Positions 28,892 to 37,606 of a DNA stretch of 64,000 nt are shown piece by piece. The stretch lies in assembly GCF_054482595.1 (NCBI RefSeq), contig NZ_CM137008.1. One strand, given 5' to 3'. A program made the position numbers and the translations under genes. The first letter of the stretch is position 1, and each line of letters opens with the position of its first letter. A model generated the notes under the pieces. That model had not been told where the DNA came from. It did not search any database and saw only the letters and a program-made list of their open reading frames with translations.

Positions 28892-30874
28892 TTAACGGCT
28901 CTGCTTTCTCAACAAATAGATAAAATATGGCGCGCCGATAAAGGTCGACAGCAGCCCCGCCGGGATCTGGAACGGAAACAGCACCATCCGCCCACACCAG
29001 TCAGCGAACACCAGCAGTAAACCACCCACCAGCGCCGAAATCACGATGTGCGGCATCGTCCGTCGAAAGCCCATCATCCGCGCGATATGCGGTGCCATTA
29101 AACCAACAAAGCTCAACGGTCCAATGGTCATCGTCGCGGTCGCCGTCAGGCAAGCCGCTAACAGCAGCAGCGCAATTCGCGTCGGCGTTAACGCCACCCC
29201 CACGGCCCGCGCGGTATCACCACCCAGCGGTAAAATGGTCAGCCAGCGGCGGCACAGCGGGGTAATCGCCAGCAAAATCACCATCACAATTCCGGTGCGC
29301 CAGACCTGCGCATCGGTGGCGTTGTAGGTCGAACCAGAGATCCAGGTCAGCACTTGCGCCATTCGCGGGTCACCACTCGCCTGCAACATCATTAAAAGCA
29401 TGGTGAATGCGGTACTTAACGCCATCCCCGCCAGTAACATGCGGTGTGGGGAAAATCCACCGCGCCCGGCGGCGATCATAATAATCAACAGCGTCACCGC
29501 GGCACCGATACTGCCCGCGGGTAACAGCCAGCCAAAGGCATTACCCGGCACCAGAAACAGCATTAACACCACGCCAAACGCCGCGCCAGAGCTAATCCCC
29601 AGCACTTCCGGGCTTGCCATCGGGTTTCCGGTCAGCCGCTGAATAATACAGCCCGCCACCGCCAGCATGACGCCCGCAAACAGCGCCGCCATAATTCGCG
29701 GCCAGCGCCAGGGCATTAAATCATCGAGCAACGCCCCGCTCGCCCACGTCCAGCCGTGCGCATCACGACCAAACGACAGCGCCACCACCACAGCCATCAA
29801 CAGCAGCACGCCGCCCGCGAGGGCAAACGCCAGCACATGTTGGCGTTCAGCCGCGACACGATCGTTGACCTTCATATCCGGCGCGCTAATGCTGCGTAAA
29901 CGCGGCAGCAACCACAGTAGCAGCGGCGCACCGATCAACGCAGTGACCGAACCGGTGGACACTTCCATCCACACGCGAGTCAGCCAGAGGATGATTTGAT
30001 CGGAAAGCCAGAGGATCAGCGCACCAATCAACGACGCCAGCATCAGTCGCGGCAGCAGACGCCGCGCCCCCAGCATTTTTGCCAGCAGCGGCGCGAACAA
30101 CCCGATAAAGCCGATAATCCCCACTGCGTTCACCAGCAGCGCACTGATGACTATCGCCAGCAACAGCGCCGCCAGACGCGCGAGCGACAAGGCCAGCCCG
30201 AGATTGCGCGCCACGCCATCATCAAGCCCCATCAGGGTTAACGGACGAAGTAGCAGCAACGTCAGCATCACACCGCCCAGCAACTGCGGCCATAAACGCT
30301 CAACACCGCCCCAGTCGGTTTGCGTCAGCGTTCCGGTGCTCCACAGAAACATGCTTTGCAGTTGGTCATGGTGGAAGATAACCAGTAACTGATTGATTGC
30401 CCCACAATAAAGGCTCACTACCAGCCCCGCGAGAATCAGCGTTACCGGCGACAGCCGTTTCCCCCACGCGACGCCAAAGACAATTAAGCCAACAACACAA
30501 GCCCCTGCCAGCGCAGCAAACTGGCTCGCCATCGCACCAGGGATCGCCCAGAGCGTCGTGACGGTAATCCCCAGTTGCGCGCCTGTAGCAACGCCCAACG
30601 TCGTCGGTTCCGCCAGCGGGTTACGCAGCACTTGCTGAAACAGCACGCCCACCAGCCCCAGGCCCGCGCCCACCAGCAGCGAAATCGCCAGACGCGGTAA
30701 CAAGCTGTAGTGAAAAATCATCTGCTCGATGACGTTAATATCCGGCGACCAGGCGGCCTGCGCCCACTGGCTACGCGGCAGCGCCTGCGAAAAGTTCATC
30801 CAGGTCAGCGCCGTAGCGACAATCACCAGCAGCGCCAGCAATAATGCCGGGAAAAGCGCAATACGTTTACTCAC
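28892..30874 (-). CDS. fhuB: ferric hydroxamate ABC transporter permease FhuB
   Basis: 660-aa duplicated-permease ORF; fhuACDB synteny. Confidence 0.95.
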   Translation of the reverse strand: MSKRIALFPALLLALLVIVATALTWMNFSQALPRSQWAQAAWSPDINVIEQMIFHYSLLPRLAISLLVGAGLGLVGVLFQQVLRNPLAEPTTLGVATGAQLGITVTTLWAIPGAMASQFAALAGACVVGLIVFGVAWGKRLSPVTLILAGLVVSLYCGAINQLLVIFHHDQLQSMFLWSTGTLTQTDWGGVERLWPQLLGGVMLTLLLLRPLTLMGLDDGVARNLGLALSLARLAALLLAIVISALLVNAVGIIGFIGLFAPLLAKMLGARRLLPRLMLASLIGALILWLSDQIILWLTRVWMEVSTGSVTALIGAPLLLWLLPRLRSISAPDMKVNDRVAAERQHVLAFALAGGVLLLMAVVVALSFGRDAHGWTWASGALLDDLMPWRWPRIMAALFAGVMLAVAGCIIQRLTGNPMASPEVLGISSGAAFGVVLMLFLVPGNAFGWLLPAGSIGAAVTLLIIMIAAGRGGFSPHRMLLAGMALSTAFTMLLMMLQASGDPRMAQVLTWISGSTYNATDAQVWRTGIVMVILLAITPLCRRWLTILPLGGDTARAVGVALTPTRIALLLLAACLTATATMTIGPLSFVGLMAPHIARMMGFRRTMPHIVISALVGGLLLVFADWCGRMVLFPFQIPAGLLSTFIGAPYFIYLLRKQSR

Positions 30875-31761
30875 GCTTTACCTCCAATGGCGTTATCCAG
30901 AACGCGCACAAAGTGCATTGCCGAGAGCGTTGCACCATAAAACCAGACTGCGGGTACGCGCTGAAAGCGTCCGGCGCGGACAAACGGCATGGCCTGCCAC
31001 AGCGGCGTTGCCATTAGCGCATCCATGTCTTTGCTGTTGTCGTGATCAAAACAGAGCACATCAACGTCTTTATACGCTGCCAGACGATCGATGCTGACGG
31101 CGGTACTGCCCCAGAAGTTGGTTTCCCCTTGCCAGGCATTTGGGATGCCGTACTCATCGAGAATTTCCTGGAACAAGCTGTTTGGACCGAAGACCAGCAT
31201 ATGGCGCGGATCGATAAGCGTCGTCAGCAATAACGGACGCGCACCACGCTTCACAAAGCGGGGTTTCATGCTGCGGATAAAGTCTTCATATTGCGCTAAA
31301 TGCGTTTCTGCTGCGCTTTGCAGGTTAAGTAAATCCGCCATTTCCGTCAGCGATTTACGCGCCATCGCCAGCGGCTGTTTGCCGTCGCTGAAGTTAAATC
31401 CACGCCCCGGCGCAATACGAGCCAGCATTTCTGGCGAAGGACCATATCCCGCCGACCAGACCATAAACGACGGTTTCATTTCGGTCAGCAGTTCGAGGTT
31501 AGGTTCTGTACGCAAACCGACGTCAATCACCGATTCAGGTAGTGGTGGTTCGCTGACCCACAGTCGATAGTTGATGGTGTCTGCCACGCCATAAGGCACG
31601 ATGCCGAGCGCCAGTAGTAATTCCACCGGCAGCCACTCCAGCGCCACAATACGATTTGGGTCAATAGCCGCCGCGTGGGCGGTATTCATCTGCCATAACA
31701 ACGGAGAAAGCGCCATCGCCGTTAACAGTCGACGGCGCGAAATAAGAGGTAAGCCGCTCAT
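30871..31761 (-). CDS. fhuD: ferric hydroxamate periplasmic binding protein FhuD
   Basis: ORF MSGLPLISRRRLLTAMALSPLLWQMNTAHA...; start chosen at second Met (296 aa); stop overlaps fhuB start by 4 nt. Confidence 0.92.
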   Translation of the reverse strand: MSGLPLISRRRLLTAMALSPLLWQMNTAHAAAIDPNRIVALEWLPVELLLALGIVPYGVADTINYRLWVSEPPLPESVIDVGLRTEPNLELLTEMKPSFMVWSAGYGPSPEMLARIAPGRGFNFSDGKQPLAMARKSLTEMADLLNLQSAAETHLAQYEDFIRSMKPRFVKRGARPLLLTTLIDPRHMLVFGPNSLFQEILDEYGIPNAWQGETNFWGSTAVSIDRLAAYKDVDVLCFDHDNSKDMDALMATPLWQAMPFVRAGRFQRVPAVWFYGATLSAMHFVRVLDNAIGGKA

Positions 31762-32558
31762 CAATAAACAAAACTCACAGGTGCAGCACCCGCCGGATGC
31801 GGCAGAATACCCATCGGGATGCCATAAATCATTTCGAGGGTTTCGCCGCGCATAATTTCCGCAGGCGTTCCCTGAGCAATCATTTCACCGCCGCGCAGGG
31901 CGACCAGATAATCACAGTAACGCGCAGCCATATTGATATCGTGCAGCACGGCAATGACCGTCAGGCCACGCTCCTGACTTAAACGGTGCACCAGCGCCAG
32001 CACATCAACCTGGTGGGCGATATCCAACGCCGAAGTCGGTTCGTCGAGCAACAGACAACGGCTATCCTGCGCCACCAGCATGGCGATCCACGCCCGCTGA
32101 CGTTCGCCGCCAGAGAGGCTGTCTACCAGCCGATGCGCCAGCGATTTTAAGCCAACCAGCGAGATAGCTTCCTCAACTTTTTCGCGATCTGCCGCACCAA
32201 AGCGCCCTAGTGCGCCATGCCACGGGTAACGACCAATCGCCACCAGTTCACGCACGGTCATCCCTTCTGCCGGAGGAAGCTGCTGCGGTAAATAAGCCAC
32301 TTTGCGGGCGAACGCTTTGCTGCTCCAGCTTTCCAGCGGCTGGGCATCAAGAAGAATCTCCCCTTCCGACGGCGGCTGATGACGGCCAAGCATTTTGAGC
32401 AGAGTGGATTTACCAGAACCGTTGTGACCAATCAGACCGGTCACTTTCCCGGCAGGAAAGGTTAACGACAGCGGATGCAAAAGCGTGCGCCCGGGCACAC
32501 GAAAGGAGATATTACGCAGTGCAAAAGTGGTATCGGAATGATTCGTGTATTCCTGCAT
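31761..32558 (-). CDS. fhuC: ferric hydroxamate ABC transporter ATPase FhuC
   Basis: ORF contains MQEYTNHSDTTFALRNISFRVPGRTLL...GHNGSGKST...LSGGERQ (Walker A / ABC signature); start placed at that Met. Confidence 0.92.
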   Translation of the reverse strand: MQEYTNHSDTTFALRNISFRVPGRTLLHPLSLTFPAGKVTGLIGHNGSGKSTLLKMLGRHQPPSEGEILLDAQPLESWSSKAFARKVAYLPQQLPPAEGMTVRELVAIGRYPWHGALGRFGAADREKVEEAISLVGLKSLAHRLVDSLSGGERQRAWIAMLVAQDSRCLLLDEPTSALDIAHQVDVLALVHRLSQERGLTVIAVLHDINMAARYCDYLVALRGGEMIAQGTPAEIMRGETLEMIYGIPMGILPHPAGAAPVSFVY

Positions 32559-32608
32559 AACAGCCAACTTGTGAAACGGGCACGGAAATCCGTGCCCCAA
32601 AAGAGAAA

Positions 32609-34852
32609 TTAGAAACGGAAGGTTGCGGTTGCAACGACCTGACGTTCTGCGCCCCAGAAGCAGCCATAAGTGTTAAAGCAGCTGGCGACGTATTCACGAT
32701 CGAACAGGTTGTTAACATGCAGCGCCACGTTGGAGCCCGCCATGCCGACTCGCGCCAGATCATAACGCACTAACGCATCCACGACCGTATAACTTCCCAC
32801 TTTAAAGGAGTTAGCCGGATCACCATAGCTGGAGCCAGTATAACGACCACCGGTGCCCAGCGTCAGACCTGAAAGCGGACCGTCAAAGAAGGTATAGTCA
32901 GCCCACAGCGAAGCCATGTGTTTTGGCACCTGTGCAGGCGTATTGCCTTTATAGGTAGTATCGGTGGTGTATTCCGCATCGGTGTAAGTATAAGAACCGA
33001 CTACGTTAACACTCGCCGACAGCGCCGCTTTCGCTTCGATTTCTACGCCACGTGCGCGGATCTCGCCACCTTCAACCGAGAAGAAGGAACCCTCAGGGTC
33101 CGCCATCAGGTTGTTGGTTTTAGTGAGATTATACACGGCACCAGTAACTACAATCGGACGATCTTCCGGTACATATTTCACGCCGACTTCATACTGCTTA
33201 CCTTTAGACGGTGCGAAAATATTACCATCCTTCCCAACTTGCGAAGAAGGTTCAAACGATTCGCTATAGCTAAAGTAAGGTGTTACGCCATTATCAAACA
33301 GGTAGTTAACACCACCACGCCAGGTAAACTGTTTGTCATCACGTTTATCGGTCGTCCCGGCAACGCGGTTAAGAGATTCTTGATCTGCCCAGTCATAACG
33401 ACCGCCCAGGGTGACCAGCACTTTATCCCACTGCGCCTGATCCTGAACATAAACGCCCGTTTGTTTCTGTTTATTCAGAATGCGGTAAGGGCCGGAGTTT
33501 GCCGGATCTTTGGCATTGAAGTCGAAATCGGTATTCACCGGATTGTACAGATTGAGCAGTGGCACAGAGTCGTCGTAACCAAACCAGGCGTTGATGTCAT
33601 TACGCATACGCATAAAGTCGACACCGGTCAGCAGGGTGTGGTCGATATCGCCAGTGGCAAACTTGCTCTGCAACTGGGTATCAACAGAGAAGTTTTGCAG
33701 CTTCTCATCATCAACGACGTATTTACGTGCCAGATAATGGCCTTTATCCGCTGGCGCTAATGCCGCACACTGTTTGCTGTAAGCATTCGCCGGATCGGAG
33801 CAGACGCCGTAACCATAAACGCTGTTTTGCGAGGTTTTGTTTTCAGCAAAGCGCAGGTTCTGACGCACAGTAAAGGTGTCGTTAAATTCGTGATCGAAGC
33901 TGTAGCCCACCATCTTCTCATTACGAGAATAGGTGTTGTTCTTCGCCCCTTCGTTAAAGTCTGTCGGCAGACGCTTACCGTTCGGCAGCGGCTCAACGGT
34001 TCCCTCTTTCGGCAACCAGCCGTAATAACCGGTTTCCGGCTCGTTCTGGAAGTAAGAAAGGAAGGTGAAATTGGTTTTATCATCCGGACGCCAGGTGAAC
34101 GCCGGTGCAATAGCATAACGCTGCTCTTCTGACCCTTTCTGCTGGGCATTGGCAGAACGCGCAAGACCGGTCAGGCGATAAGAGTAAACGCCATCATCAT
34201 CCAGCGCATCGCTAAAGTCAAAACCAGTCTGGAACAGGCTGTCAGTACCGGCTTTAAACTGAACTTCTTTCAGCGGTTCGGTGGTCGGACGCTTGCTGAC
34301 CATATTCAACAGACCGCCAGGACTGCTTTTACCGTAAAGCACGGAAACCGGGCCACGCATAATTTCAGCGCGTTCCAGCATATACGGATCAATGACCGCA
34401 TCGTTATAGAAGTTGCCCTGCAACTTCAGGCCATTCAGATAGTTATTTTGGCTTTGGCCTTCTGCCGCAAAACCGCGAATGATCAGGTGGTCATAGGTGT
34501 TGGATGCGCCACGCGTACCAACAGAGACACCCGGCGTATAGCTAAGCGCTTCTTTCACCGACTTCGGCTGATGCAGCGCCATCTCTTCGGCGGTCACAAC
34601 AGAAATAGACTGTGGCACTTTTTGAATCGGCGTATCGGTTTTAGTGCCGGTAGCTGACTGTCGCGCCGCAATAGTTGCAGCAGGCCCCCATGCGCTTTCT
34701 TGCGGCGCAGGTGCAGCGGTAACGGTGATAGTGTCTTCTTTCGGTTCAACCGCTGCCTGTGCATAAACAGACATGCCGCTAACCGCTGTGGCTACTACAA
34801 CTGCGATTTTACGCAGTGAGTGTTTTGGCTGAGCAGTTTTGGAACGCGCCAT
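32609..34852 (-). CDS. fhuA: TonB-dependent ferrichrome outer membrane receptor FhuA
   Basis: 747-aa ORF MARSKTAQPKHSLRKIAVVVATAVSGMSVYAQAAVEP... ending ..ATFRF (terminal Phe). Confidence 0.95.
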   Translation of the reverse strand: MARSKTAQPKHSLRKIAVVVATAVSGMSVYAQAAVEPKEDTITVTAAPAPQESAWGPAATIAARQSATGTKTDTPIQKVPQSISVVTAEEMALHQPKSVKEALSYTPGVSVGTRGASNTYDHLIIRGFAAEGQSQNNYLNGLKLQGNFYNDAVIDPYMLERAEIMRGPVSVLYGKSSPGGLLNMVSKRPTTEPLKEVQFKAGTDSLFQTGFDFSDALDDDGVYSYRLTGLARSANAQQKGSEEQRYAIAPAFTWRPDDKTNFTFLSYFQNEPETGYYGWLPKEGTVEPLPNGKRLPTDFNEGAKNNTYSRNEKMVGYSFDHEFNDTFTVRQNLRFAENKTSQNSVYGYGVCSDPANAYSKQCAALAPADKGHYLARKYVVDDEKLQNFSVDTQLQSKFATGDIDHTLLTGVDFMRMRNDINAWFGYDDSVPLLNLYNPVNTDFDFNAKDPANSGPYRILNKQKQTGVYVQDQAQWDKVLVTLGGRYDWADQESLNRVAGTTDKRDDKQFTWRGGVNYLFDNGVTPYFSYSESFEPSSQVGKDGNIFAPSKGKQYEVGVKYVPEDRPIVVTGAVYNLTKTNNLMADPEGSFFSVEGGEIRARGVEIEAKAALSASVNVVGSYTYTDAEYTTDTTYKGNTPAQVPKHMASLWADYTFFDGPLSGLTLGTGGRYTGSSYGDPANSFKVGSYTVVDALVRYDLARVGMAGSNVALHVNNLFDREYVASCFNTYGCFWGAERQVVATATFRF

Positions 34853-34872
34853 TGGTATATCTCTGATGTAAA

Positions 34873-34924
34873 GTGAATGATAACGTAAACGAGAATGATT
34901 ATTATAAAGATAAGATAATATTCG
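34873..34924 (-). promoter_or_regulatory. fhuA promoter region with Fur-box-like iron-regulation operator
   Basis: AT-rich GATAAT/ATTATC-type hexamer repeats (GAATGATAACG, GAGAATGATTATTATAAAGATAAGATAATATTC) within about 70 bp upstream of the fhuA start; resembles the Fur consensus GATAATGATAATCATTATC. Confidence 0.45.
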
Positions 34925-35071
34925 AAACGCTGGCGGGTTCGCAAGCGGTACGCAATCTGAGCGTTCCTGAAGGGTTAATAAACAACCAGATGAAAAGAAA
35001 GGGTTAATATTTTAGATGGGATGTTATTTTACCGGATGGCAACTCGCCATCCGGTATGTCACGTTTAGACG

Positions 35072-37606
35072 TTAATTACTACCAAACATATCTTTAATCC
35101 AACCGGCTACACCGTCGCTGTCTTTCTGCTCTTGCTGAGCAGGTTGCTGTTGCGGCTGTTGCTGCGGCTGAGAAGACTGATCAAACGGATTGCCTGACGG
35201 CTGCTGCTGCATCTCACTCTGCTGGCACAGCGATTGCGGATCGCTGGTCCAGACCGGCAAGACACGCATGCCACCGCTGCAAACAAAGTTGCCGTCGTAG
35301 TCCACGCCCATATCTGCAATATCTTCTGGCGGAACAAGATTCAGCGGCGTTGGCGTCTGGTTAGCCAGATAACGCTGATAAATCGACATTGCCCCGCTGG
35401 CACCATACAGTTTGGTCGGCTGGTTGTTATCACGGCCGACCCAGGTGATGGTCACCGTGCTGCCGTCAATGCCCGCAAACCAGGTATCTACGTTATTGTT
35501 GGTAGTCCCTGTTTTCCCTGCCAGATGCAGGTTCGGGTATTTCGCCCCAAGCTGACGACCCGTACCACGTTGTACCACCTGCTGCATGGTCCATAGTGTC
35601 AGATACGCCGCCTGCGCCGGAACAGCGCGTTCCGCCTGCGGGAAGCTCTGATACAGCACTTTGCCATCTTCCGCGATTACCGAACGCAGCGCAGAAAGCG
35701 GTGCACGGTTACCACCGCTGGCGATGGTCTGGAATGCCTGCGCCACTTCGATTGGCGTTAAGTTCAACGCCCCCAGCAGCATTGCCGGAACCGGATGCAA
35801 CTGATCTTTCGGTACGCCCAGTTTGATCCAGGTATCCGTAACCGCAGGCAGCCCCAGCGCCATCCCCAGATTTACCGTCGGCACGTTCATCGAACGGGTC
35901 AACGCATCCACCAGCATCACTCTGCCGCTTTCGCTATAACGACGGTCATCATTCTGCGGTGACCAGACCTGGCCATTCGGCTGACGCAGCGCAATTGGCG
36001 CATCCGCAATCCACGTATTCAGACGATAGATTTTCGGCTGGCTTAAGGCCGTCAGATAAGTCGCTGGTTTTGCAAGGGAACCAATCGAACGACGCGCCTG
36101 CATCGCACGGTTGTAGCCCGCAAACTGCGGCTCAGAACCTCCGACCATCGCACGAACTTCACCACTAAAGCGGTCGACGACCACAATCGCGGTTTCCAGA
36201 TCGCTCAGCTTACGCTGTTTCTTAAGTGCCGGAATGCCTTCCACGGCGGCTTTTTCTGCCGCGTCCTGGGCCACCGAGTCAAAGGTAGTGAAGATCTTCA
36301 CGCCGGAGAGATCTTTTACCTTATCGCCTAATTTAGCCTGAAGCTCCTGACGCACCAGTTGCATAAAGGCTGGCTGAGGAGAGATCACCCCACCGCGCGG
36401 CTGAACACCCAGCGGACGCGCACTCAACATGTCATAGAGTTCTTGATCAATAATCTGTTGCTGTTGCAGCAGACGCAGTACCAGATTACGTCGCTCCAGC
36501 GCCAGTTTCGGGTTACGCCACGGGTTGTAGATGGACGCTCCTTTCACCATACCGACTAACAGCGCCTGCTGATCGAGGCTCAATTCTTCTACCGGGCGAC
36601 CAAAGTAATACAAGCTCGCCAGCGGGAAGCCGCGGATTTCGTTGTCGCCGCTCTGACCGAGATACACCTCGTTCATATACAGCTCAAGAATACGGTCTTT
36701 GCTGTAACGCGCGTCCATGATCAGCGCCATGTAGGCTTCATTCGCTTTACGCCAGTAAGAGCGCTCGCTGGAGAGGAACAGGTTTTTCACCAGCTGCTGC
36801 GTCAGCGTACTCGCCCCCTGCACCGTTCGACCTGCGGTCAGGTTTGCCAGCACCGCACGTCCGATGGAGTAGAGACTGATCCCATCATGCTCGTAGAAAT
36901 GACGGTCTTCTGTCGCCAGCAAAGTATCCACCAGCAAATCCGGGAAACCACTGCGCGGCACAAACAAACGCTGCTCACCGTTTGGTGAGGAGATCATGGT
37001 GATCAGACGCGGATCAAGACGGAAGAAACCGAACTGACGGTTGTTCTCCATATTGACGATGGTCGCCAGATGATCGCCATCAAAGGTCAGACGCGCACGC
37101 ACCTGCCCTTCTTTGCTGTCCGGGAAATCAAACGGACGGCGGATCATCTCAATGCTGTTAGCCTGCACAGTAAATTCGCCAGGACGGGTCATTTTCGACA
37201 CCTGACGATACTGGGTTGCCTCCAGCAGCTTCACCATTTCGTTCTTGCTGATGGTCATGTCTGGCTCAAGGTTGACCATTCGGCCATAAACTGCCGCAGG
37301 CAGTTGCCAGACCTTGCCATCAATACGGCTGCGAATTTTTTGATCGAGATAAACGCCGTAAATGGCGATCAGCACGGCAAAAACGATAGCCAGTTTTAAC
37401 AGCAGCCATAGCCAGCCGCGTTTGCCACGAGGCTTACGCCCTTTGCCTTTGCCCTTACCTTTGCGCGGCATCGGTTCTTCATCCTCATAGTCATCATAAT
37501 CGTCGTAATCATCGTCATCTTCGTAACGACGACGGCTTACCTTTTGTTTGACCGGACGCGTCGGTTTCCCTTTGCGTCCAATTGGCTCGCGGTCATTCCC
37601 GGCCAT
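35072..37606 (-). CDS. mrcB: penicillin-binding protein 1B (bifunctional glycosyltransferase/transpeptidase)
   Basis: ORF contains [23 protein letters not shown]...; start placed at that Met (844 aa); track ORF has 5 extra N-terminal codons. Confidence 0.93.

Follow-up and report, generated by a model that had tools for sequence, protein, structure and literature searches.

Upstream of fhuA, the gene for the ferrichrome receptor that also serves phages T1, T5 and phi80, colicin M and albomycin, lies a run of overlapping AT-rich hexamers that an initial annotation read as a Fur box. Repression of fhuACDB by Fur is a long-established part of E. coli iron homeostasis, and the array raises a narrow set of questions: whether it is a genuine operator or AT-rich promoter DNA that merely looks like one, how much of it belongs to Fur, and where it stands with respect to the start of transcription. 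We are highly confident that the interval contains the operator through which Fur represses the sigma-70 promoter of fhuACDB in E. coli, most likely by occluding initiation when the cell is iron-replete.

The window analysed here, a stretch of 64,000 nucleotides, comes from an E. coli chromosome: when the interval and its surroundings (701 nt) are used as a query, 5424 of the 5426 complete E. coli genomes match, several of them at 100%, and fhuA and mrcB are the features annotated there. Relative to K-12 the numbering is reversed, a window position being equal to 34852 + (167484 - K-12 position). The regulated gene, fhuA, occupies 32609..34852 (747 codons) and is followed by fhuC (31761..32558), fhuD (30871..31761) and fhuB (28892..30874, with a GTG start), all of them on the minus strand, as are all the promoter features described below. 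The region upstream of fhuA, likewise read on the minus strand, extends over 34853..35071, and mrcB ends at 35072. Approximately 160 bp directly before the fhuA ATG are identical to K-12 MG1655, and the only four differences from K-12 lie ~160-220 nt upstream, near a hairpin that follows mrcB; experiments carried out on K-12 are therefore directly applicable to this promoter. The fhuC and fhuD genes overlap by 1 nt (TGATG), and fhuD and fhuB by 4 nt (GTGA), so that the overlaps of 1-4 nt earlier ascribed to fhuACDB are real at these two junctions; fhuA and fhuC, by contrast, are separated by 50 nt containing a hairpin, and translational coupling at every junction of the operon has to be abandoned.

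The hairpins deserve a brief description of their own. The one in the fhuA-fhuC spacer, 3' of the fhuA stop codon, is GC-rich (GGGGCACGG-AUUU-CCGUGCCC, 32578..32597, minus strand; -20.1 kcal/mol, z = -4.2) and could either limit read-through or make the fhuA message more stable; either effect would fit the fhuA RNA level, which is ~5-fold above that of fhuC in the expression table of Gao et al. 2023 (PMC10164565). Directly after the mrcB stop codon there is a perfect 11-bp hairpin (ACCGGAUGGCG-AGUUG-CCAUCCGGU, 35030..35056, minus strand; z = -5.8), which is followed by AAAAUAAC in place of a U-run. On the minus strand it can thus be no more than a weak terminator, and transcripts from mrcB might conceivably continue into fhuA. 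Between this hairpin and the promoter, the motif (A)TTAACCCTT occurs twice, ~30 nt apart (34969..35008, minus strand); its first copy overlaps the distal of two predicted HypT sites, and the TTAAC/TTAAAC blocks of both copies are partially conserved across genera.

Read on the fhuA sense strand, the interval 34924..34873 is CGAATATTATCTTATCTTTATAATAATCATTCTCGTTTACGTTATCATTCAC, with 75% A+T, and it reaches to 72 nt before the ATG, in agreement with its placement within 70 bp upstream of fhuA. The hexamer array reported there is present: seven hexamers differ by at most one mismatch from GATAAT or ATTATC. The single exact copy, ATTATC at 34919..34914, overlaps the -10 hexamer of the promoter, and the others are CTTATC (34914..34909, within a non-conserved stretch), TATAAT (34906..34901), AATAAT (34903..34898), ATAATC (34902..34897), ATTCTC (34896..34891) and GTTATC (34884..34879, inside the proximal predicted HypT site). 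A count of seven is the maximum for any 52-nt stretch in the 64 kb (mean 0.52) and is reached at the fhuA promoter only; composition-preserving shuffles of the 52-mer itself contain 1.4 such hexamers on average (P ~0.0005). An extended array in a 6-bp register spans 34879..34914, its hexamers starting at 34914, 34908, 34902, 34896, 34890 and 34884 and agreeing with ATTATC at 5, 4, 5, 5, 3 and 5 of 6 positions, respectively. The whole 52 bp, which had been taken as one Fur array, is nevertheless too wide: approximately 19-31 bp make up the Fur operator proper, while the outer hexamers coincide with the -10 element, the non-conserved stretch and the sequence corresponding to a HypT footprint.

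Counting mismatches to the classic Fur-box consensus GATAATGATAATCATTATC was rejected as a means of recognizing the operator: with 5 mismatches, the fhuA box is on a par with four unrelated places in the window. We therefore used a position weight matrix (PWM), symmetric and 19 columns wide, built from 13 gel-shifted or footprinted K-12 Fur sites (fepA-fes, fepD-entS, entC, fecA, fecI, yoeA, gpmA, ryhB, sodA, fhuF, nohA, cir and exbB) with fhuA excluded. Site centres were taken from Table 4 of Chen et al. 2007 (PMC2189734) and sequences from NC_000913.3, with coordinates adjusted for shifts between genome versions and each one checked against the start of its gene. The top match in the 64 kb is the 19-mer TATAATAATCATTCTCGTT at 34888..34906, centred on 34897, a near-palindrome of the form TATAATAAT-C-ATTCTCGTT (34906..34888 in the direction of transcription). 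It scores ~20.6 bits, which corresponds to a per-position P of 6.5e-8 and to 0.004 matches expected per 64 kb, and it ranks 9th of 14 when placed among the leave-one-out scores of the training sites (18.0-29.3 bits). In a matrix scan, the first check recommended with the initial annotation, the site thus comes out on top of the window and at the level of proven operators. A weak second match (2.1 bits) is centred on 34903, 6 bp upstream of the core. The classic 19-bp box, CTTTATAATAATCATTCTC at 34891..34909, matches the consensus at 14 of 19 positions and is offset by 3 nt from the core 19-mer, because the frames of the classic consensus and of the M9 model of Chen et al. are known to differ in this way.

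The second-best match in the window, ATTGAGAATCATTCTGAAT at 13574..13592 (18.2 bits), lies between map and rpsB, 84 nt before the map ATG (13667), and corresponds to K-12 189581..189599. A Fur ChIP-exo peak assigned to map has been published at 189588-189600 (PMC10164565), and its overlap with the match constitutes an internal control that validates the matrix. A strong Fur site thus lies upstream of a housekeeping gene, that of methionine aminopeptidase, whose place in the iron regulon is not obvious. From the fhuA ATG to this site the window measures 21269 nt, compared with 22106 nt in K-12, i.e. it has ~837 bp fewer between fhuA and map (~13600 to ~34850).

The position of the operator has to be judged against the start of transcription. 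In the Cappable-seq data of Ettwiller et al. 2016, obtained in minimal medium, the main start of fhuACDB is K-12 167428 (relative read score 31.4, enrichment 3.2), the other plus-strand start is 167477 (score 2.0), and none falls between the two (PMC4782308). In the window the main start is 34908, which gives a 5' UTR of 56 nt and lies 7 nt after the hexamer TATTAT (34915..34920, -12..-7), as is proper for a sigma-70 promoter. Promoter scanning, the spacing to the start site and the invariance of the hexamer in other genera agree in identifying TATTAT as the -10 element; the -35 hexamer is TTGCGA (34939..34944), which was found by the same scan and whose CTTGC is conserved across genera, and with the 18-nt spacer the pair TTGCGA-18-TATTAT matches sigma-70 at 9/12 positions. 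In Klebsiella pneumoniae, the fhuA start mapped by Kim et al. 2012 follows ...CGCTTGCC...CGTTTCGCCTATTATATCGCCCG and gives a UTR of 55 nt (PMC3415461), so this start uses the same promoter and -10 element as E. coli fhuA. With transcription starting at 34908, the operator spans -1..+21 (the classic box -1..+18, the core 19-mer +3..+21) and overlaps the start site and core promoter, as a Fur box should, and the perfect TATAAT at 34906..34901 is internal to the operator (+3..+8) rather than the -10 element.

Motif score, position, conservation and operon anatomy are observed directly here; the literature on the identical K-12 sequence supplies the start site and the evidence that Fur binds in vitro, occupies the promoter in vivo and, when deleted, leaves fhuA derepressed. 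The centre of our match, 34897, is K-12 167439, to the base the position at which Chen et al. 2007 list a fhuA site (19.5 bits, at -45); an oligonucleotide carrying the 167439 site was gel-shifted with 150 nM Fur, and three overlapping sites were described as a 31-bp cluster at fhuA (PMC2189734). Under iron-replete conditions, Gao et al. 2023 report for fhuACDB a Fur ChIP-exo peak at 167456-167466 in MG1655 and 167456-167468 in W3110, i.e. 34880..34868 in the window, which is marked as also found by Seo et al. (PMC10164565). The narrow MG1655 call (34880..34870) lies 17-27 bp downstream of the motif centre, which counts against an exact coincidence of peak and motif. Two further MG1655 peaks assigned to fhuACDB (167218-254 and 167641-672) contain nothing better than 1.6 and -10.7 bits, respectively; having no motif beneath them, they were rejected as Fur sites and treated as shoulders or artefacts. 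Transcription responds as well: in nine strains the log2 fold change of fhuA in Δfur was 1.09, 5.00, 2.18, 0, 3.10, 1.97, 1.07, 1.40 and 3.93, an increase of 1.1 to 5.0 in 8/9 strains, with the repression in MG1655 (1.09) being modest (PMC10164565), and the activity of a fhuA promoter-lacZ fusion depends on Fur (Beauchene et al. 2015, PMC4676285). Gel shift, ChIP-exo, Δfur derepression and lacZ fusions therefore agree in the comparison with iron regulation and binding data that had been proposed as a further check, and, together with the motif score, they uphold the original interpretation of the array as mediating iron-dependent Fur repression of the ferrichrome uptake operon. The literature yielded no Fur footprint of the E. 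coli fhuA promoter, whether by DNase I or by hydroxyl radicals, and fhuA is absent from the 12 regions footprinted by Chen et al. (PMC2189734); for this reason the extent of Fur protection is given below as a deduction.

Conservation was followed in orthologous promoters collected, one genome per species, with a degenerate DNA pattern for the TonB box of FhuA (EDTITVTA), a choice that avoids bias towards the promoter itself. The scan yielded 25 loci encoding FhuA-like proteins, 22 of which are enterobacterial loci with a start codon that could be placed; they cover ~10 genera and further lineages, including Escherichia, Citrobacter, Enterobacter, Atlantibacter, Lelliottia, Pseudenterobacter, Klebsiella indica and Tenebrionibacter. 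A Fur site is present in 22/22 promoters, with 16.8-20.6 bits and a centre at -44..-48 from the start codon, following the pattern (T/C)ATAATAAT(A/C)ATT(A/C)TCGTT. In the alignment of the 17 non-Escherichia sequences the arms of the palindrome are invariant and the central base (34897) varies between C and A, which is the signature expected of a palindrome bound by a dimer. Three promoter blocks (CTTGC, CGTTTCG and TATTAT) do not vary from genus to genus, no conservation is seen in the 9 nt that separate the -10 element from the Fur operator, and in the flank 34892..34873 conservation is as strong as in the Fur core; some of it must therefore have another role, e.g. in HypT binding. Within the species, the 52-mer is found unchanged in at least 4184 of 5414 E. 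coli genomes, and the two variant genomes that were examined carry changes at 34913/34912, outside the Fur core. Two loci of the collection are peculiar in other respects. In E. coli SCPM-O-B-8794, an E. coli-type promoter is joined to a FhuA with an Enterobacter-like N-terminal region (AAKHSATATKTDTPIEK), an arrangement that suggests allelic exchange within fhuA, and in Citrobacter amalonaticus AUH the expected in-frame start codon is absent, which may reflect a frameshift or an assembly error.

Promoter spacers are normally unconstrained in sequence, and CGTTTCG (34923..34929, -21..-15) is identical in 17/17 of the non-Escherichia orthologous promoters. Compared by eye with the consensuses of CRP, ArcA, PhoP, IscR, sigma-32 and extended -10 sites, it fits none of them. 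We give only a small chance to an undescribed layer of control in the fhuA promoter, in which CGTTTCG could mark the site of a further factor and the TATAAT of the operator could provide a second, condition-specific start.

The flank downstream of the core brings in HypT, a HOCl-sensing regulator of the LysR type, whose DNase I footprints on the Salmonella fhuA promoter were described by Jo et al. 2019 (PMC6397515). The proximal predicted site, TTACGTTATCATTCA at 34874..34888 (+21..+35), contains GTTATC, matches the Salmonella footprint at 15/15 positions and is nearly invariant across genera; the distal one, AACCCTTTCTTTTCA at 34991..35005 (-97..-83), matches its counterpart AACCCTTCCTTTTCA at 14/15. 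As a Fur site, 34892..34873 scores less than 0 bits and offers the half-site GTTATCATT only. An RNA element in the fhuA 5' UTR was considered and rejected (fold z-score -0.1, no Rfam match at E <= 1), so that the constraint on this segment probably acts at the level of DNA, through HypT, Fur spreading, or both.

When iron is plentiful, dimers of Fe2+-Fur occupy the core (34906..34888) and probably spread in the 6-bp register to the weaker neighbouring hexamers (34914..34879), so that bound Fur would cover ~ -6..+30, i.e. DNA that RNA polymerase holds and melts. Since Fur would be sitting on DNA needed by the polymerase, initiation would most likely be blocked by occlusion; when iron is scarce Fur departs, and fhuA and the downstream fhuCDB are transcribed.

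Three other explanations have to be weighed against this one. One is that the array owes its resemblance to Fur hexamers to chance, being no more than the AT-rich DNA of a promoter with its -10 element, melting region and 5' UTR, and that the iron regulation of fhuA is indirect. The region does contain 75% A+T, one of its hexamers is the -10 element and another lies within the proximal predicted HypT site, and by the classic consensus there are five places in the window with 5 mismatches; yet even with a background of 75% A+T only 0.002 matches with the PWM score of the fhuA site are expected in the intergenic region, the density of hexamers is hardly ever reached by shuffling, conservation follows the palindrome and leaves its central base free, and the published gel shift and ChIP-exo data contradict it (PMC2189734, PMC10164565). 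We regard a fortuitous resemblance as extremely improbable. A different promoter for the same Fur operator is given in RegulonDB and by Huerta and Collado-Vides, with TATAAT (34906..34901) as the -10 hexamer and 34894 as the start; in this geometry Fur would repress by binding on the -10 itself. TATAAT is a perfect -10 consensus, the cluster of Chen et al. overlaps a predicted sigma-70 promoter (PMC2189734), and Jo et al. 2019 number the HypT footprint 34888..34874 as +7..+21 from a start equivalent to 34894, which they took, with TATAAT as the -10, from a computational promoter paper (PMC6397515). Cappable-seq, however, reports no start at 167442, with a threshold of 1.5 (PMC4782308), no acceptable -35 hexamer is found 16-18 nt upstream (CGTTTC, GTTTCG and GCGTTT match TTGACA at 0-2/6 positions), other genera have CATAAT in place of TATAAT while TTGC.A-18-TATTAT is invariant, and the mapped Klebsiella start stems from the upstream promoter (PMC3415461). 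Initiation from TATAAT thus appears improbable; the database-derived start is probably wrong, and the published positions of HypT and Fur, counted from 34894 rather than 34908, are then probably off by 14 nt.

The remaining alternative concerns the extent of the operator rather than its existence, and we judge the chances for and against it to be roughly even: 34892..34873 may be chiefly an operator for HypT or another factor, which would make the 52-bp array a composite of a -10 element, a Fur operator and a HypT operator. The exact match to the Salmonella footprint points in this direction, as do the near-invariance of a block that is so poor a Fur site and the lack of RNA structure or an Rfam match in the UTR; on the other side, GTTATC keeps the 6-bp register of the core hexamers exactly, it is on this very block that the ChIP-exo peak (34880..34870) falls, which makes the spreading of Fur plausible there too, and HypT binding itself is known from the Salmonella promoter. 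Such a composite complements the Fur operator as the main explanation of the locus and does not exclude it.

Set beside known systems, the fhuA operator is ordinary, already known and already described. It is the K-12 fhuA Fur site itself (Chen et al. 2007; ChIP-exo of Seo et al. 2014 and Gao et al. 2023), at the same locus, with an identical sequence, a coordinate equal to the base and nothing of substance that differs, and it has little significance beyond correct annotation. What the start at 34908 does change is the geometry, in that the operator lies at and just downstream of +1 and not where the database-derived start used for HypT and Fur numbering in a recent structural paper would place it, a correction that is needed whenever Fur, HypT and RNA polymerase are modelled together. 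The Salmonella Typhimurium fhuA promoter described by Jo et al. 2019 has the same pair of HypT sites, with an identical proximal 15-mer, a distal one that differs by one base and a spacing of 102 nt in both; binding is known for the Salmonella HypT only, and its numbering follows a start unsupported by E. coli Cappable-seq. With the Fur operators of cirA, fepA-fes, fecA, fhuF and ryhB, fhuA shares the AATGATAATnATTATCATT-type palindrome, overlapping clusters spaced by 6 bp and overlap with the core promoter, and the ryhB site, AATAATAATCATTCTCATT, has nearly the same sequence. It differs from them in that its strong site is placed just downstream of the start (+3..+21), whereas in the operators of other TonB-dependent siderophore receptor genes and in ryhB it lies over the -35/-10 region, and in that it comprises one strong and one weak site, compared with 4-13 in fhuF, fecI or iucA.
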